From Candidatus Limnocylindria bacterium (GTDB lineage Bacteria; Chloroflexota; Limnocylindria; QHBO01): DNA of 64,000 nucleotides. Below the pieces are notes generated by a model that did not search any database, was not told the DNA's origin, and was given only the letters and a program-made list of their open reading frames with translations. Position numbers and translations under genes: made by a program. Shown here in pieces: positions 41,771 through 50,110 of the stretch. Every line of letters starts with the position of its first letter. Positions within the stretch are counted from its first letter, which is position 1. The stretch spans positions 1,751 through 65,750 of the forward strand of contig JBBSML010000012.1 in the NCBI GenBank assembly GCA_038233215.1, given 5' to 3'.

Positions 41771-42250
41771 ATGCGCCTGCTTCAACGTCGCCCCAGACGA
41801 GGCCAGTCCCTCGTGGAGTTCGCGCTCGTTCTCCCGATCTTCTTCCTGCTCCTGTTCGGAGTACTGGATCTCGGTCGCGGCGTTCTCGCCTTCAACTCTG
41901 TGTCCAACGCGGCACGGGAGGGCGTTCGAACGGCGATTGTCGATCAAACGGTTTCTGCCATCAAGGCACGAGCCGCCAGGACGTCCACCGGGGCTGCGCT
42001 CTCCGCCGGGGACATCCGCATCGCGTTCCGCAGGAGTGACGACCCCACCAACATCAGCAACGTGTGCAACCCGGTTCGCGAAGGATGCGTCGCCGTCGTG
42101 ACCGTGCAAACGCTCTTCCAGGCGGCAACGCCGTTGATCGGCAACATCGTCGGCCCGGTCTGCATTCAGTCCACGACCATGATGGCCGTCGAGGCCGTAC
42201 CAACCCCCACCCCCGCTCCACCTCCCGCGTGGACGGCGGCCTGTCCGTGA
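41771..42250 (+). CDS. TadE-like minor pilin
   Basis: MRLLQRRPRRGQSLVEFALVLPIFFLLLFGVLDLGR. Confidence 0.65.
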   Translation: MRLLQRRPRRGQSLVEFALVLPIFFLLLFGVLDLGRGVLAFNSVSNAAREGVRTAIVDQTVSAIKARAARTSTGAALSAGDIRIAFRRSDDPTNISNVCNPVREGCVAVVTVQTLFQAATPLIGNIVGPVCIQSTTMMAVEAVPTPTPAPPPAWTAACP

Positions 42251-43395
42251 TGGAGAAGACAATGCCCCGCTCCCACACTGCGCGCCCTGACGAGCGCGGC
42301 CAGATTCTCGTGATGGTCGCCGCTGGGCTTTTCACGCTCATCGCCTTCATCGGCGTCATCATTGATGGCGGCAACGCGTGGTCGCAGCAGCGCGGCATGC
42401 AGAACGGCACAGACGCGGCAGCCGAGGCGGGCGCGGTCGTCCTGGCCCAGCGGATCAGTGGAGCGTCCCGAACCGATTCTGATGTCGCCGCCGCGGTTGC
42501 GAACTTCGGCGCCAAGAACAACATCCAGGTTCCGGCGGCGTACTACACCGACTACACCGGTTCCCTGCTCGCCCCGAGTGGCACGACCACCACGGATCCG
42601 TCCGCCGCGGCGCGCGTCGGCGGCGGGTCGATCCCCAATGGAACGCAGGGCGTACGCGCCTCCGGCCGGCGAACGTTCGAGACCTTTCTTGCCCGTATCA
42701 TCGGTATCAATCAGTGGACGACGTCGGGGGAGGCAACGGCGGTCACGGGGCCCCCGCGGAGCATCTGCGCAGGTGCGGACGGATGCGCCCTGCTGCCCGT
42801 GGCCTTCCCGGTCAACCTGATCCAGTGCGATGGGTCAGACAAGGTGCAGTACAAGGTGCCGGTGGAGCCCTACGTCGCGGGTAGGCGGTACATCTTTCCG
42901 CTCTGCTTCAACTCGCCAGGCAACGTGGGCTGGCTCGACTGGGTTCCCCCAGCCGGTGGCGCGAGCGAGGTGGCATCGTCCATCTCCACTCCGAATAATC
43001 CAGCCATTGACCTGCCGTCATGGGCCGGAATCGACCAGACTGGCAACATCAGCAGCTCGCAAGTCGAGAATGCACTCAACGGCTACATTGGTCAGCCAGT
43101 CACGCTCCCGCTGTTCGACAGCACCTGCGATATGGAACCGTCTGGAGTTCTTGTCGGTGATTGTCCGGCCGGCCATGTCGGCGGAAATGGGAACAACCAG
43201 TGGTACCACATACCGACAGTCATGTCCCTGGTCATCGAGCGCGCCTACATCAACGGGACCTACAGCCAGTGCGCGCCGGTTGGCGCCAAGAGCTGCATCA
43301 TCGGCACGGTCACTTCCTTGACTGAGTCGGGCACGGTGGGACAGGTTACGGGCACCACCGTATATGACAATGTCAGGGTCCAGCTCGTCCGCTAG
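42250..43395 (+). CDS. TadG-like (Tad_N domain) pilus protein
   Basis: ERGQILVMVAAGLFTLIAFIGVIIDGGNAW...TDAAAEAGAVVLA; ATGA overlap with upstream gene. Confidence 0.65.
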   Translation: MEKTMPRSHTARPDERGQILVMVAAGLFTLIAFIGVIIDGGNAWSQQRGMQNGTDAAAEAGAVVLAQRISGASRTDSDVAAAVANFGAKNNIQVPAAYYTDYTGSLLAPSGTTTTDPSAAARVGGGSIPNGTQGVRASGRRTFETFLARIIGINQWTTSGEATAVTGPPRSICAGADGCALLPVAFPVNLIQCDGSDKVQYKVPVEPYVAGRRYIFPLCFNSPGNVGWLDWVPPAGGASEVASSISTPNNPAIDLPSWAGIDQTGNISSSQVENALNGYIGQPVTLPLFDSTCDMEPSGVLVGDCPAGHVGGNGNNQWYHIPTVMSLVIERAYINGTYSQCAPVGAKSCIIGTVTSLTESGTVGQVTGTTVYDNVRVQLVR

Positions 43396-43624
43396 TGACG
43401 CAAACTGCGATCGTCTTTAGGCGACGCCCACTTGAGGCGAGTCGTCTGGTGGGCGAAGGGCGCACGTGAATGCATCGAGCTTCCCGTCGGGACGATACAC
43501 CTCAGCAGGAGCAAGCCGGGCGATCGGCTGTGGGCTAGTGAACGCGGGATCGTTGGAGGGTGTCCTTCCGTAAGCCGGTAAGCCCGGCCTGCAGGGGTAT
43601 GGAACTCGAACCGCAGTTGACCGC

Positions 43625-45265
43625 CTAGGGACCCGTGACACAGAGATTGCCGGGTGAACACGCACGATCAAGTCGAAGGACTCCTCGCCGCTCGGTGTTG
43701 CTGGCCGTTAATCTGAAGACAGACGAGTCGAACTTCAAGGTCCATGACCACAGCTGGCCGATCTCGGCGGCGGAGGTGGAATTTCCCTTGAAGTCTGCAT
43801 TGTCGCTCGGGGCATACTGCACGCCTGCAAGAAAAATGTTTCCTCCCCCTGTGAGAGTCAGCGTGGAGTTCTCGCTGTCCTTGCAGTCGGGTGGAGTGGT
43901 CAGCCCCACGATGCAGTTGGGGTCCCGACGCACCATCACCGTCAAAGGGAGAGGACGGTCTCCAATAGTCTGTACCGGGCCCGTCGGTCCAGTCGCCGCC
44001 TTGGCCTTCTTGCCCGACGAGTTGAGGTAAGCGCTGCCGTAGTTCATCGCCAGCAGCGAAGTTGCGGTCTTGGTCGTGAACCTCCCAGGCTCCCGCCCCT
44101 CGCTGCTCGCTTCCTTGAAGACGAGGGCCACGCCGGCCTGATCTGGCACGAAGCCACCAATCAGACTCTCCGAGACGGTTACTCCAAAGTCGAAGAAGTA
44201 GACGCCTGGCGCAAGGAGGTACGCCGTTTGGGTCGTCGCGCTGACTACTTGATACCGATAGACGCCCGGTCGCAAGCAGACTGCGGTCACCTTGAGGGGA
44301 TCACGAATGAGTTGGTTCGTCTTTAGCTCACGGTAGGAGTCCGGGACGGACGCCTGAAGGGCGCTGCAACGCGCCGCATAGTTCGCGTCATAAGCCGGGT
44401 GTCCGACCTTCGTGCCCATTGCCTCAGCCTCGTCGGCGTACCGATATCGCGGGTCGGTGGGAGCGTCCGGGATCGTGTAATTCGGATCATCTGTGTACGT
44501 GGCCGTCTGGACCCCGGTCGGATTCCCGCTCCACAACTTATACGGGTCGTAGTAGTACAGGTTGTAATCAGGATCAAGGATTAGTTGAGAGAATCCCGCT
44601 CCTCCGCCGCCGCCATAGAACATGTTGGTGTTGGTGACGACGTCCCCGTTCGCGACGTATACCTTGCTGCCGCCGGTGATCTGGAGGTTTTTCTCGTTTG
44701 CGTCGCTCGCATTATTGCGAGGGCTTGGTGGTCGCAGGGCGACGAGGGCATACTGACGAGCGTGAACCACACCTGCGACAGACGTCGCCCGAACCTGCCA
44801 TTGGTTCTGACCCAAGATCCGGCCAAACGTGAGTTTGAAGGAAGGCTGCCAGACGCTTACCTGGACCGCACGGGAGGACTCGCAGTCCAAGCAGCTCGGC
44901 GAGGGCGTGATGATGGACACGCGATAGTCCGTCCCCGACATCGCGCAGCCGCCAGCCGTAAGGCAGTCGCCGGCAGGTCCGGTCTTGCTTGGACCGCCGA
45001 GCTGCGAAGCGAGAACGTCCCACGCGTGCTGACGAGCCTTGGCTCGTTCGGTTTCCGTGGGCAAGGCCCTGGTCCCCGGCACCTGTAAGTCCTGAGCACC
45101 GGCAAGAGAAGCTGCGTCCGCCACGGACCGTTCCCAGCGTTCCGCCATGTAGGCAGCGCTGACGTCGACCGCGAGGGCGCTGAGACCTAGCAAGACAGTC
45201 ATCATGAGCGCCGCAAGGACCAGTACCTGGCCTCGCTGAGATTGAGAGAATGCTACGTTGGTCAT
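43625..45265 (-). CDS. large TadG-like (Tad_N domain) secreted pilus-associated protein
   Basis: QRGQVLVLAALMMTVLLGLSALAVDVSAAYMAER...ADAASLAGAQDL; 546 aa. Confidence 0.65.
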   Translation of the reverse strand: MTNVAFSQSQRGQVLVLAALMMTVLLGLSALAVDVSAAYMAERWERSVADAASLAGAQDLQVPGTRALPTETERAKARQHAWDVLASQLGGPSKTGPAGDCLTAGGCAMSGTDYRVSIITPSPSCLDCESSRAVQVSVWQPSFKLTFGRILGQNQWQVRATSVAGVVHARQYALVALRPPSPRNNASDANEKNLQITGGSKVYVANGDVVTNTNMFYGGGGGAGFSQLILDPDYNLYYYDPYKLWSGNPTGVQTATYTDDPNYTIPDAPTDPRYRYADEAEAMGTKVGHPAYDANYAARCSALQASVPDSYRELKTNQLIRDPLKVTAVCLRPGVYRYQVVSATTQTAYLLAPGVYFFDFGVTVSESLIGGFVPDQAGVALVFKEASSEGREPGRFTTKTATSLLAMNYGSAYLNSSGKKAKAATGPTGPVQTIGDRPLPLTVMVRRDPNCIVGLTTPPDCKDSENSTLTLTGGGNIFLAGVQYAPSDNADFKGNSTSAAEIGQLWSWTLKFDSSVFRLTASNTERRGVLRLDRACSPGNLCVTGP

Positions 45266-45846
45266 TGGGGTGCCTTGGGTTCCATGCGGAGTTGAGTCGA
45301 CGAGGTCACGCAGTAGCCTGAAGATCCCTGACAGTTACCGATGAGAGCCTGAAGCCCGGGCAGGAATATCGGCACGACGTGGCTGACCTTCACCCGGATC
45401 GACCAGGGAATTCTGCCGTCAGCCGGCGGACAGTCACTGGGGAACAATGCAATTGGCGGACTGCCCCACTGCCAATCGGCGGCAGGCTGCTGTCCGGAAG
45501 GGAACCAGTCGACACCGACACCGCGCGCACCCCCTGACGTTGACGAGCCAGCGCTTGCCCATGGGGTCCAACCAACTAGCGAAGCTCGGCCGGCCTGCTC
45601 GTTGGCCTTAGAGCTCACGTTCGCACGAGACGCAGCGGAGTCGCACGGAGCAAGAGGTTGCGTCACTGCCCAACGTGCTGTCTCCCGGGCTACCTCCGTA
45701 ACCGCGTTCTGCGTCCAGAGAATCACCGAAAACTGGACCAGGCCGCCTACGACGAGCATGAACAGCCCGATAACAAGAGCGAACTCGACCATCGCCTGTC
45801 CTCGGGAACTGCAACCGTTGGCAAGAGGCTTAGTCCAAACTCTCAC
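45262..45846 (-). CDS. TadE-like minor pilin
   Basis: ...SSRGQAMVEFALVIGLFMLVVGGLVQFS. GTG start at 45844-45846 overlaps the upstream stop as GTGA. Confidence 0.55.
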   Translation of the reverse strand: MRVWTKPLANGCSSRGQAMVEFALVIGLFMLVVGGLVQFSVILWTQNAVTEVARETARWAVTQPLAPCDSAASRANVSSKANEQAGRASLVGWTPWASAGSSTSGGARGVGVDWFPSGQQPAADWQWGSPPIALFPSDCPPADGRIPWSIRVKVSHVVPIFLPGLQALIGNCQGSSGYCVTSSTQLRMEPKAPQ

Positions 45847-46412
45847 TGGTCTTCCTGTGGCTCCATGCGGAACTGCGAGGTCGCGGTAACCGGGAAGGTG
45901 CACCCGGAACTTTGGCACGTGATAGAGAGTGGCAGGTACTCCAGCCCCGGAATGAACACTGGAACGCCGTGGGCCAACCGCACCGTGACGTACTCGGTTA
46001 CCCGGTTGTCGAGCGGACGGACACACGCCCCACCACCCTCTCGCGACCACACGACCTCTACCCCGCCATCCGCATTCGGAGCACTAGCGGGGAGCTGAGT
46101 GTTATCCGGGTATGCCATGAAGACGTTCCAGCCGCTGGAGTATCCGAGGATCCCCGCCTCAGAGGCGAAAAGATTGGCTTGAGTAAGGGGTTGGGGAGGC
46201 GCGTCCGTCGCCGCCTTGGCGCATGGGTCACGCGTTTGTGTAGCTGCCCAACGTCCGGTGTCCCTGGCAACCTGGACCAGCGCGTGCCTAGCGGCAAAGA
46301 TCGCCCCTACTTGGACGACTCCTCCGATCAACGCCAGCAGAACTGGTAGGACGATTGCGAATTCGACGAGGGATTGCCCCCGCCGCGGTTTGGTGAACAT
46401 TCGATAGGACAT
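45843..46412 (-). CDS. TadE-like minor pilin
   Basis: MSYRMFTKPRRGQSLVEFAIVLPVLLALIGGVVQVGAIF. Confidence 0.65.
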   Translation of the reverse strand: MSYRMFTKPRRGQSLVEFAIVLPVLLALIGGVVQVGAIFAARHALVQVARDTGRWAATQTRDPCAKAATDAPPQPLTQANLFASEAGILGYSSGWNVFMAYPDNTQLPASAPNADGGVEVVWSREGGGACVRPLDNRVTEYVTVRLAHGVPVFIPGLEYLPLSITCQSSGCTFPVTATSQFRMEPQEDQ

Positions 46413-46939
46413 CTGTACTGGGGGAAGACGGCAATCGTACCTGGCCTACCTTGCAATCCCCCTAACAAGCCGGTCCTCGTCACCTACCTACTTTCACGGC
46501 ACGGCTTACCGCTCCGTGTGCCGACTATCAAGTAGCAGATGGGGTCCTCAGGACGATTTCCTTAGCTTCGCAGGCGTCGAAGTCCGCCGCTCACGCGGGC
46601 TGAATCCCGGACTATGGTAAGGATTGGCAGAGTCATGGCGGCGCGCCAGAATCGGCAATATGAAGAACTGGGCTCGACGCTTGCTTTCCGCCACGGTTTG
46701 GGCCTTGGCGATCTCGACTTGGGGATCGATTGGACACCACTTACTTGGTACGCCGGATCTCGGGCCAGTACTACCGTTGGCCGTCGGCCTAATTGTCGTC
46801 GGCTGGCCCCTTGGGGCGGCGTATCGCAACCGAATCTCCACCACACCACCGATCTCCGCCATGGGCGGTACGCGCGGTGCGTAGGGCGGCCGAAGTGGCG
46901 ACCTCTAGATAGCTAAGCGCCGGCCCACAGGACCGAGAC

Positions 46940-47781
46940 TCAGGCCTCCAGGGTAGCGGTGATGATGATGTCGTCGACCACGATGACCGCCGGTGGCGGT
47001 CCCGATGCCACTGCAAAGGCACCGCGCAGGTTGTTAAGCCAAGCCACCCGGTTGAGCCGGTGCTGCTTCGTCGTCGGTCGCGTCCGCACGAGCACCGAGG
47101 ATAGGGGCAGCCCAACCGGCGCGACAGCCCGTTGCTCGATCAGCTCGGCCTGGTGGTAGCCGCGCGCCGCCAGCCGCGCGGCGTGAACGGGAACCGGCAC
47201 CAGCGCGGCCGCGGGACCCGCAATCGGCAGCAGCAAGCGCAGCGCGGGCAGTGCCGCATCGGCGAGGGGGGCGCCGGGCGGGAGACGCCGGCGTACTTGG
47301 GCGCCGCGAGCGCGCGACGCATCGGTCCTTCGTAGGCGAAGGCAGCGATGGCGAAGAGGAGCGCGTCACCGACCACAACGCCGGCATCGGGCGCGACGAT
47401 CGGTCGCGTGGATCCAGCGGTGTCCGGAAGCACGCGGGGCAGGCGGCGCAGAGGAGCGCGCCCGACCGAACCAGCCGGCGCAGGCGGGAGACAGGAGCAG
47501 GTCCAGGAGTCGCATCGGCCTCCAACGGCACGTGTCGTTGACGGGTCCAATCCTTGCGTGAATCTAGGCGCGCATACGTCCTGCACGATCAATCTCGCCA
47601 AGTAATCAACGTCCGCTTCAGCGGCGGCGAGGAAGGTCTCGGTTCGGAATCCGGCCGAGGCGCTCTTGCGTTGTACTGCCCTGCGATGATGCGCCGATGA
47701 CTGGTGCGGCCCGTTACATCCGAATCGAGAACATGACCCGGGGAACGGTCGTGGGCGAGCGGGTGCGCGTAGCCAGGTCAA
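46940..47781 (-). pseudogene. decayed, frameshifted paralog of comF (ComF/phosphoribosyltransferase family)
   Basis: Two frames give VAPDAGVVVGDALLFAIAAFAYEGPMRRALAAPKY... and ...GYHQAELIEQRAV...RTRPTTKQHRLNRVAWLNNLRGAF...VIVVDDIIITATLEA. These match the intact comF at 48544..49191 (about 80% nt identity over the aligned part) but lack the last about 20 codons. Confidence 0.55.
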
Positions 47782-48071
47782 GCCGCGACCGCACGGTCGG
47801 TCTGCTGCGGACGCCGGAGGTCAAGCTCGGCGAGGGACTCTGGATCGAGCGGTCACCGTCGATCCACATGTTCTTCATGCCCTACGCCATCGACGCCGTC
47901 TTCGTCGGCAAGGCCGGCCGCGTCACGAAGGTGGTAGTCAACCTGAAGCCGTGGCGCGTCGTGTGGTGGGCGCGCGGCGCCCGCGACTGCCTGGAGCTGC
48001 GGGCGGGAGCGGCCGCCGAGAGCGGCACCCAGGTCGGTGACGAGCTGCGGCTCGTCGACATCGGCTCTTAA
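47697..48071 (+). CDS. DUF192-family protein (COG1430)
   Basis: LWIERSPSIHMFFMPYAIDAVFVGKAGRVTKVVVNLKPWRV; likely start MTRGTV at 47733. Confidence 0.6.
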   Translation: MTGAARYIRIENMTRGTVVGERVRVARSSRDRTVGLLRTPEVKLGEGLWIERSPSIHMFFMPYAIDAVFVGKAGRVTKVVVNLKPWRVVWWARGARDCLELRAGAAAESGTQVGDELRLVDIGS

Positions 48072-48482
48072 ACTTCGTCGAGCCTCCGCGAGGGTCTGGC
48101 CGAGAAGGCTGGTGAAGAGCGCCTCCGTGGCGTGATGCTCGCCCCGCATCGAGAGCGCGGCGGCGCCCGCGAACACTAGATTCTCGGCCTTGGGCTTGAT
48201 TCGGACGAAGGACGGCAGCCCGTAGCGGACGGCCAACCAGTTCGCCATGAAGCGGGCCGCCCGTCCGTTTCCGTTGGCGAACGGATAAATACGGATCCAT
48301 TCTCCGTGGGCGTAGGCGCAGAGCCGAACGATCGCCGCAACGTCGAGGTGCCGGGACGGCACACTCCCCGGTGGTATGGCGGCATCCAGGGCGCCGGTCA
48401 CGGCGGTGGCGGCACCGATGAAGCGATCAAGCGCATCGGGGACCTCCCTGACCGGCGTACCCGCCACGCCGCCGACGGTCAC
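47853..48482 (-). CDS. short Fic/Doc-superfamily protein with non-canonical active-site motif (YPFANGNGRAAR instead of HPFx[DE]GNGRxxR); 3' end uncertain, possibly a pseudogene
   Basis: LDVAAIVRLCAYAHGEWIRIYPFANGNGRAARFMANWLAVRYGLP matches the Fic core helix-loop pattern. GTG start. The ORF overlaps the convergent DUF192 gene by about 220 nt, so the true stop is probably earlier. Confidence 0.45.
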   Translation of the reverse strand: MTVGGVAGTPVREVPDALDRFIGAATAVTGALDAAIPPGSVPSRHLDVAAIVRLCAYAHGEWIRIYPFANGNGRAARFMANWLAVRYGLPSFVRIKPKAENLVFAGAAALSMRGEHHATEALFTSLLGQTLAEARRSLRADVDEPQLVTDLGAALGGRSRPQLQAVAGAARPPHDAPRLQVDYHLRDAAGLADEDGVDGVGHEEHVDRR

Positions 48483-48543
48483 CTCGTAGCCGATCAGGCA
48501 GCGGATCCGATATCACATGTCAAGATGTGACATCAGTCATCCC

Positions 48544-49191
48544 CTAGACCTCACGCGCCAGCGCGAAGCCGTACACCGCTGAGCAACCGGCCTGCCGCAG
48601 GACCGATGCGCACGCCTCCAGCGTCGCCGTGGTGGTGATGATGTCGTCCACCAGGATGGCCGTGAGCGGCACCGCCCCGGACGCCTGAAACGCGCCGCGC
48701 AGGTTCGCCAGGCGCGCCGTTCGGTTGAGCCGATGCTGCTTCGTCGTCGGTCGCACGCGCTCGAGCGCCAGAGCCATGGGAGTTCCGAGCCGGCGTGCGA
48801 TCAGCTCCGCCTGGTTGTAGCCGCGAGCCCGCTGACGTTCGCGGTGCAGCGGCACCGGTACGAGCACCGCGGGTCCCGTGGTGCGCAGCAAATTGTCCAA
48901 CGCCGGCGTGGCGGCCCGCGCCAGGATCGGCGCAAGGCGAGAGGCGCCTCCGTATTTCAGCGCCGCCAGGGCGCGGCGCATCGGTCCTTCGTACGCGAAC
49001 GCTGCCACGGCGAGGGCCAGCGCATCACCCACGACCACGCCGGCATCCGGGGCCAGGAAGCGATCTGCAGGCCGTGAAGGCACCTGCAACCCGTTCAGGC
49101 ACCGGGGACATAGCAGTGCGCCAACTCGGCCGCAGGCGGCGCACGCCGGCGGCATGAGGAGATCCAGCAGCGACACGATGGTCCCCAGCAT
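48544..49191 (-). CDS. comF: ComF-family protein (competence-associated phosphoribosyltransferase-like, N-terminal Cys4 zinc ribbon)
   Basis: CAACGRVGALLCPRCL...; PRTase loop ILVDDIITTTATLEACASVLRQAG. Confidence 0.75.
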   Translation of the reverse strand: MLGTIVSLLDLLMPPACAACGRVGALLCPRCLNGLQVPSRPADRFLAPDAGVVVGDALALAVAAFAYEGPMRRALAALKYGGASRLAPILARAATPALDNLLRTTGPAVLVPVPLHRERQRARGYNQAELIARRLGTPMALALERVRPTTKQHRLNRTARLANLRGAFQASGAVPLTAILVDDIITTTATLEACASVLRQAGCSAVYGFALAREV

Positions 49192-49531
49192 GCGTTGTGG
49201 CCATTACCGCGCGCGTACCGGGTACTTATCGCGGTGCTTGGCACTGGGTGCGCGGTCGGCGGACATCGGTCCTTATCAGGCTCGTGGCTGTCGCGTCTCG
49301 GGGCGTCCGGAACCGAAATTTGGCTGGGGCGCAAGCAACTACGAAGTTGGGCCCCGAAACCGTCCCCGATTTGCCGCACGTGCAAACCATGGGCCTGTTG
49401 GGGGTAGAAACGGGCGGATTCGGCCTCTTCTTCGTAGATACTTGCGCTGGGCGCAAACGGCGCGTAGTGGGCGCGCGGGTGTAGCCTAGAAGGCCATTCC
49501 CGACCACACACGCAGCGGAGGGCAGGGAAGA

Positions 49532-50110
49532 GTGAAGACGAACCTGACGGCCCGCAACCTGGAGCTGAGTGACCTGCTCCGAGAGCAGATCGAGCACAAG
49601 CTCCAGCGGCTCGACCGCATCACGCATGACCTTGCAGAAGCCGATGTCGAGCTGATCGCCAAGGCCTCCCACGCGGCGGACAGCGCACAGGTCGCGGAGG
49701 TCACGCTGCGTAACAACGGCGACGTCCTGCGCTCAACGGCGGCCGGTCCCACGCCCATGGCCGCACTCGACATCGTGGTCGACAGGCTCGAGCGCCAGGT
49801 GGTTCGTCACAAGGAGCGGCCGCGCAGCGTGAGGGAACGCCATGCGGACGAGGTCGAATCCGTCCTGGAACGAGAAGCGCTCGGAACGATCGAGCCTGAT
49901 GAGGCTCCAGCTCCATCGGTCGTGAAGCTCAAGCGCTTCGACATGCAGCCGATGTTCTCCGAAGACGCCATCGCGCAGATGGAAGAGCTTGGCCACGCCT
50001 TTTTCGTGTTCCTGGACGCGGAGACCGATGGGGTCGCAGTGCTGTATCGGCGCAGGAACGGGTCGTACGGGCTGATCGAGCCGGTTCTCGGCAACGGGAA
50101 ATCGCGCTGA
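49532..50110 (+). CDS. hpf: ribosome hibernation promoting factor, long form
   Basis: MKTNLTARNLELSDLLREQIEHKLQRL...; C-terminal dimerisation domain HAFFVFLDAETDGVAVLYRRRNGSYGLIEP. Confidence 0.85.
   Translation: MKTNLTARNLELSDLLREQIEHKLQRLDRITHDLAEADVELIAKASHAADSAQVAEVTLRNNGDVLRSTAAGPTPMAALDIVVDRLERQVVRHKERPRSVRERHADEVESVLEREALGTIEPDEAPAPSVVKLKRFDMQPMFSEDAIAQMEELGHAFFVFLDAETDGVAVLYRRRNGSYGLIEPVLGNGKSR

Follow-up and report, generated by a model that had tools for sequence, protein, structure and literature searches.

Known Fic systems and the fic remnant of Candidatus Limnocylindria

In the class I toxin-antitoxin (TA) systems FicT/FicA, such as VbhT/VbhA and EcFicT/EcFicA, a separate small protein contributes an inhibitory glutamate that is linked by a salt bridge to the second arginine of the Fic motif (PMC5033356). 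The D/E position of this motif normally binds Mg2+, and other Fic lineages carry lysine or a hydrophobic residue there (PMC5033356). The locus described here is from a Candidatus Limnocylindria bacterium (Chloroflexota) and lies within a stretch of 64,000 nucleotides of contig JBBSML010000012.1, in the following called the window. It contains on the minus strand an open reading frame (ORF) with a Fic match (47853-48482; 209 amino acids (aa), GTG start) that runs antisense into a DUF192 gene. The ORF is very probably the decayed remnant of a two-gene TA-like module, composed of a small partner and a Fic protein of 220 aa, and it is functionless and neutrally evolving. Compared with its orthologues in the same context the gene is truncated and frameshifted, compared with its neighbors it is under relaxed selection, and its lesions are found again in a second assembly.

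Doc, the toxin of the Phd/Doc systems, belongs to the same Fido superfamily. Its consensus motif is HxFx(D/N)(A/G)NKR, in which a lysine precedes the arginine and both D and N are tolerated at the fifth position. An initial annotation of the window had described the ORF as a Doc-sized Fic protein that was either a recently inactivated toxin or a non-catalytic variant. The comparison with intact relatives leads to another conclusion: the locus is an ordinary pseudogene, unsurprising to specialists, and neither a Doc toxin nor a functional non-catalytic Fic protein nor a true long gene overlap.

The ORF, its motif and the antisense overlap

The Fic identity of the ORF was correctly recognized from its motif. 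The Pfam profile Fic (PF02661) matches with E=7e-7 and 30.4 bits (cut-off 24), which is above the curated threshold, and the best database relatives, annotated as Fic, are found with E=1.7e-66, far beyond chance. The profile match covers only residues 46-83 of the ORF (profile positions 55-92 of 93), as compared with profile positions 3-92 in the intact orthologue P0001; the Fic core of the window copy is incomplete, its domain helices being partly lost.

The motif YPFANGNGR, within the sequence I-R-I-Y-P-F-A-N-G-N-G-R, is present as annotated, with the tyrosine encoded by TAT (48287-48285) and the asparagine by AAC (48275-48273), although on the minus strand it occupies 48261-48287 rather than 48259-48285, a difference of 2 nt. 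The tyrosine is residue 66, in agreement with the 65 residues counted ahead of the motif. The anion-binding part GNGRxxR is retained as GNGRAAR. Two Fic core residues differ from the consensus, namely the catalytic histidine, which is a tyrosine, and the acidic D/E ligand of Mg2+, which is an asparagine.

The DUF192 gene (COG1430) on the plus strand (47697-48071) encodes 124 aa, and its match to PF02643 (E=3e-16) spans profile positions 2-95 of 96. The ORF overlaps it on the opposite strand at 47853-48071; the measured 219 nt confirm the overlap of about 220 nt that had been noted.

Intact relatives and orthologous loci

A database search yielded 72 relatives, nearly all of them 217-221 aa long, of which the closest (80-84% identity) are Fic family proteins from metagenome-assembled genomes of Chloroflexota or Candidatus Limnocylindria. 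In this search the window ORF aligned over 63-66% of its own length to the C-terminal two thirds of the relatives. In the protein alignment its last ~75 residues are without counterpart in any relative, and the motif, which is preceded by 65 residues in the ORF, is preceded by 147 residues in the intact orthologues. Among 59 aligned relatives the family motif is HPFANGNGR(T/A)AR, with histidine in 58 and asparagine in place of D/E in 57; H, F, GNGR and the second arginine are conserved across the family.

The two closest relatives are P0001, encoded by the orthologous contigs L001-L004, and P0002, encoded by L005. The gene order in these loci is comF, a small gene of 82-113 aa, fic (220-221 aa) and a convergent DUF192 gene, which is the same neighborhood as in the window. 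The small gene, from here on called the partner gene, shares 4 nt with the start of fic in L001, L002, L004 and L005 and likewise in the more distant loci L007 and L008, and the stops of fic and DUF192 overlap by 4 nt in the orthologous loci. In L005, as in the window, Tad/TadE pilus genes and a histidine kinase follow DUF192, whose orthologue (125 aa) is there the last gene in a same-strand run of Tad/TadE genes. A tblastn search of the 64-kb window revealed no second copy of fic or of the partner gene.

Three lesions in the window

The lesions were called from a DNA alignment in which L002 and L005 are compared with the reverse complement of the window at 47650-49250; it is collinear through comF, fic and DUF192 apart from two gaps, both in the window. 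The part homologous to intact Fic genes is the pseudogene remnant proper (48068-48506, minus strand), which corresponds to approximately residues 74-220 of P0001. By tblastn residues 74-216 of P0001 align to 48509-48081 with 84% identity, in agreement with the DNA alignment to L002 and L005.

The first lesion is a clean deletion, which measures 577 bp against L002 and 568 bp against L005. Its junction, at 48503-48506 (minus strand), shows a 2-nt microhomology, TC. The deletion begins 3-5 nt past an inverted repeat with a TTGACA element downstream of comF, ends within fic, and has taken the presumptive -10 region, the entire upstream partner gene, whose product resembles Arc-type ribbon-helix-helix (RHH) proteins (see below), and the fic start codon. 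At the 5' end of fic the first 73-82 codons are lost, since homology resumes at about residue 74 and the GTG used as start is equivalent to residue 83 of the orthologue of 220 aa; an in-frame TGA is located upstream at 48515-48513, and the GTG at 48482 is the first possible start. Helices 14-37 and 43-53, in the numbering of the AlphaFold2 model of P0001, are gone, as are five residues that are invariant in the family (D12, N23, R38, G66 and R69). The short N-terminus of the ORF, and hence its Doc-like size, results from this deletion.

The second lesion is the replacement of the catalytic histidine, whose codon is CAT in both L002 and L005 and TAT in the window. The asparagine, which the initial annotation had regarded as a second inactivating mutation, is not a lesion because it is native to the family: the codon AAC is found in the window and in the intact orthologues, and the residue, as given above, in nearly all aligned relatives.

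The third lesion is a 2-bp deletion (48080-48081, minus strand), where the window reads GCT--CGA and L002 and L005 read GCTTCCGG and GCTTCCGA, respectively. It is located 10 nt before the native fic stop and shifts the frame, so that the native TAA (48070-48068, minus strand), which overlaps the DUF192 stop (48069-48071, plus strand), is now out of frame and the ORF remains open until 47853. The 219-nt overlap with DUF192 is the consequence of this read-through and not a genuine long gene overlap, the stops of fic and DUF192 in the relatives overlapping by just 4 nt. The read-through tail (47853-48067, minus strand) runs antisense to the 3' portion of DUF192 and is without homologue.

With the three lesions in hand the Doc assignment can be judged. 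A full-length Doc-type toxin, inactivated recently by exchanges of His to Tyr and of Asp to Asn, would be consistent with the 65 residues before the motif, with both codons being one transition away from the canonical ones, and with the apparent size of the remnant, which is similar to that of Doc. However, the orthologues have 220 aa and more than twice as many residues before the motif, the intact relatives are 217-221 aa long versus ~125 aa for Doc, their asparagine is ancestral and conserved, their motif contains GNGR in place of the lysine-bearing NKR, and their upstream partner is not Phd-like. The probability that the ORF is such a toxin is negligible. Of the proposed recently inactivated toxin there is left that the gene is dead and that the exchange of His for Tyr is specific for the lineage, with CAT in both outgroups; the mutated asparagine, the Doc type and the real overlap had to be abandoned.

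Selection and the coding strand

The ratio of nonsynonymous to synonymous substitution rates (dN/dS), determined by the method of Nei and Gojobori between the window and L002, is 1.06 for the fic remnant (24.5 nonsynonymous and 8.5 synonymous differences), 0.17 for comF (12 and 27) and 0.11 for DUF192 (8 and 20). Between L002 and L005, in both of which fic is intact, the ratio for fic is 0.15 (46.5 and 76.5). When the changes were polarised on the branches with L005 as outgroup, the window branch received 13 nonsynonymous and 3 synonymous ones in fic versus 4 and 13 in comF (Fisher p=0.0016). The changes in fic on this branch include the catalytic histidine and residues that are conserved elsewhere, for example P173S and P181A.

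The GC content of the window is 65%, and real genes there have a GC content at third codon positions (GC3) of ~0.8-0.9. In the overlap (47853-48071) the GC3 in the DUF192 frame is 0.93, as compared with 0.89-0.93 for the DUF192 gene, and in the fic read-through frame the GC content is 0.92 at first positions and 0.68 at third positions, the mirror image that a gene on the opposite strand would give. By its codon-position GC, which is that of DUF192 and not that of a fic gene, the overlap is coding on the DUF192 strand. DUF192 is the only real gene there, full length and under purifying selection, and a second real gene in the fic ORF is at variance with these values.

Assembly and expression

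A Logan contig of 11.3 kb, assembled separately from run SRR24807093, is identical with the window at 44697-49561 except for one mismatch at 49015 in comF, and reproduces all three lesions. The gene caller behind this contig made no call for the fic ORF. The exact deletion junction had no match in GTDB species genomes or JGI metagenomes, the Logan contig being the only one to carry the allele. It had been considered that correction of a sequencing error might restore HPFxDGNGR; this finds no support in the assembly from SRR24807093, in which the lesions are identical, though possibly drawn from the same reads. The more general proposal that errors of sequencing or assembly produced the lesions and that the organism harbors an intact partner-fic module draws on the source, which is probably a metagenome-assembled genome, and on the comF-like copy nearby, which is likewise frameshifted (see below). 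Against it are three independent lesions of unlike kinds (deletions of 577 bp and 2 bp and a transition), the excess of nonsynonymous changes across the entire remnant, the identity of the separately assembled contig over the region, and the intactness of the flanking genes comF, DUF192 and hpf in the window; that errors account for the locus is extremely unlikely.

Upstream of the remnant and on the same strand lies an intact gene of the comF family (48544-49191, minus strand; NCBIfam TIGR00201, E=1e-26); transcription across the remnant could plausibly come only from this gene. No sigma-70-like promoter for the remnant was found around the locus, and the presumptive -10 region is deleted; RNA families, tRNAs, other promoters and terminators were likewise not found there.

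The second possibility offered by the initial annotation was a functional, short and non-catalytic Fic variant, for example a binding or regulatory protein, that truly overlaps DUF192. In its favor are an ORF that stays open over 209 codons and the retention of GNGRxxR and most of the core residues; in addition the ORF shares its strand with comF, and no terminator-like site separates the two. Such a protein would have to do without the two N-terminal helices and the five invariant residues named above, and it would end in a tail that is without homologue, has the codon-position GC of non-coding sequence and owes its frame to the 2-bp deletion. Since also dN/dS is ~1 on the window lineage, the -10 region is gone, no sigma-70-like promoter was found and the ORF was left uncalled on the Logan contig, we consider a functional variant highly improbable.

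Several points weigh against the interpretation of the ORF as a functionless remnant of a TA-like module. The substitution counts are small, with 33 differences when the window is compared pairwise with L002 and 16 changes assigned to the window branch by polarisation. On the L002 branch the intact fic gene (1883-2545) also shows a ratio of 6 nonsynonymous to 2 synonymous changes, numbers that are too small to interpret. The dN/dS figure is not to be over-read, yet its direction toward neutral evolution is clear. The Logan contig may share reads with the window, so that it excludes an artefact of the assembler and leaves one of sequencing open. With an ORF of 209 codons that is open, lies downstream of comF on the same strand and is not separated from it by a terminator-like site, some transcription, and even translation, is possible. 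In the partner encoded by intact loci the exact inhibitory motif [S/T]xxxE[G/N] was not found, although it has a conserved glutamate both in AFAxAE and in GVxxAFE; its match to Arc is below the cut-off and it has no sequence match in the PDB. The TA function of the intact module is what we infer by analogy with class I systems.

The intact Fic family and its partner

The AlphaFold2 model of P0001, calculated with the family alignment (pLDDT 93.7, pTM 0.91), is composed of seven helices and a β-hairpin. In a Foldseek search of the PDB with this model human FICD came first (E ~6e-6, TMq ~0.6), with further matches to BT_2513 (3cuc), EcFicT-EcFicA (5jff), C. elegans Fic-1, NmFic and VbhT-VbhA (3shg); the best sequence match in the PDB is also 3cuc (E=9e-7). 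The fold predicted for P0001 is a genuine Fic fold.

Relatives were found at at least 505 loci in GTDB species genomes of Chloroflexota, Acidobacteriota, Actinomycetota (Solirubrobacterales, Thermoleophilia and Acidimicrobiia) and Methylomirabilota. Of 80 loci fetched from several phyla, 76 have a homologue of the partner gene immediately upstream of fic in the same orientation, and none has DUF192 downstream of fic. What is conserved is therefore the pair of partner and Fic, the adjacency of DUF192 being a local accident of the clade. A functional link between DUF192 and Fic was considered and rejected for the same reason and since DUF192 in L005 ends a run of Tad/TadE genes. In L007 (6671-8663) and L008 (2951-4943), which are from more distant Chloroflexota, the pair adjoins a DUF433/DUF2283 pair and a GGDEF/EAL gene and not comF or DUF192.

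The partner has ~110 aa, with a weak match to Pfam Arc (RHH) at its N-terminus (E=0.007, below the cut-off) and two conserved segments, AFAxAE and, at the C-terminus, D-D-P-Y/F-G-V-x-x-A-F-E. Its sequence gave no match in PDB, NCBIfam or PADLOC. In the partner gene of L002 (~1800-1830) there is a 15-nt tandem duplication, ATTCAGACGCGACGG, encoding IQTRR-IQTRR, which has no counterpart in L005.

Between comF and the deletion junction the window has retained a 10-nt inverted repeat (48509-48534, minus strand), GATGTCACAT-CTTGAC-ATGTGATATC, around a TTGACA box and with one mismatch in the arms, which may be the relic of a promoter or operator. In L002 (~1497-1525) the 10-nt arms of the repeat are perfect (GATATCACAT-CTTGAC-ATGTGATATC), and in L005 the arms are 8 nt long. 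The repeat is kept between L002 and L005 despite a synonymous divergence (dS) of ~0.7. Its sequence and position make it a candidate operator/promoter for the partner-fic operon.

The intact relatives resemble class I FicT/FicA in being single-domain Fic proteins of ~200-220 aa with the Fic fold, in having a small upstream gene with a 4-nt overlap at the fic start, and in occurring in variable contexts beside other TA-like genes. They differ in that the partner has ~110 aa and an Arc/RHH-like N-terminus, whereas FicA has ~60 aa, in that the exact motif [S/T]xxxE[G/N] was not found in the partner, and in that the toxin motif is HPFANGNGR with asparagine at the position of the Mg2+ ligand. In the window the coupled small gene upstream is deleted and the module destroyed. 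The AMPylating Fic proteins FICD/HYPE, BT_2513 and NmFic are the best structural matches of the P0001 model and share with the family H, F, GNGR and the second arginine; unlike these, the family has asparagine in place of D/E and no motif of an intramolecular inhibitory helix was found in it, and the window copy in addition has tyrosine for histidine and is without the N-terminal third. As a candidate for such a helix (class II/III) the C-terminal SMRG[D/E]H was considered, which resembles SxxxE; it was set aside, its acidic position being variable (D/E/Q/N/H/R).

The PADLOC matches, to the Fic-containing candidates PDC-S04 and SoFic, were weak and at the level of motifs, and none of the papers searched contains the motif string HPFANGNGR. 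The intact family is apparently unstudied and otherwise conventional-looking. It is conceivable, though we would not yet call it probable, that the intact HPFANGNGR Fic proteins with their Arc/RHH-like partner form an uncharacterised, widespread subfamily and a new TA or regulatory variant. The asparagine itself is one more variant at a motif position already known to vary.

Neighborhood of the locus

A second, decayed comF-like copy is located at 46928-47509 (minus strand), with 69-78% nucleotide identity to the comF gene at 48544-49191 and to comF of L002 and L005. Its reading frame is changed at several points and is interrupted by an internal stop and, after ...TATLEA, by a premature one; the copy is reproduced in the Logan contig. 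The copy belongs to a segment of ~4.2 kb (~43400-47610) that the window has in excess of L005, between a Tad gene (42064-43395, plus strand) and DUF192, and that contains in addition an inverted second set of Tad (43625-45265) and TadE genes (45262-46050 and 45843-46412). The two Tad sets of the window are not the result of a recent duplication, there being no nucleotide similarity between them; the extra segment may have been acquired or rearranged.

Between hpf and comF a gene for a BrnT toxin (PF04365) is found in L001 (521-1367) and L002 (409-783). In the window the corresponding interval (49192-49531) has only ~300 bp and contains no BrnT match. The flanks of comF seem to be a hot spot for the gain and loss of toxin-like genes.

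Proposed history and meaning of the locus

The ancestral module between comF and the convergent DUF192 gene would have consisted of the Arc/RHH-like partner followed by the Fic protein of 220 aa. By analogy with class I FicT/FicA the partner would hold the Fic enzyme in check via an inhibitory glutamate, and its Arc/RHH-like N-terminus would repress the partner's own operon at the 10-nt inverted repeat around the TTGACA box. In the lineage of the window the module has suffered one deletion of 577 bp, the exchange of His for Tyr and the frameshifting deletion of 2 bp. Loss of the antitoxin beside an active toxin should be lethal; hence either the exchange of His for Tyr would have come first or a single deletion would have disabled both genes. 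Simultaneous loss by the 577-bp deletion is the simpler order because it requires one step only, and the 2-bp deletion and the scattered nonsynonymous changes would represent later, ordinary decay.

Decay is the ordinary fate of chromosomal TA-like modules. Like other degraded loci of this kind, the window has lost the antitoxin together with the 5' end of the toxin gene, and shows a substituted catalytic residue, a frameshift and neutral evolution.

Both the apparent long antisense overlap and the degenerate Doc-like toxin are thus removed from consideration, and two small deletions suffice to mimic such features in a GC-rich genome with open antisense frames. The locus provides a clean natural example of how a TA-like chromosomal module can be lost safely, namely with the partner and the N-terminus of the toxin in one deletion. 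The intact family is common in soil phyla and may merit biochemistry, which is a property of the relatives and not of the window locus; if they do form a subfamily of their own, it would be an asparagine-bearing one, possibly with altered use of metal or nucleotide.

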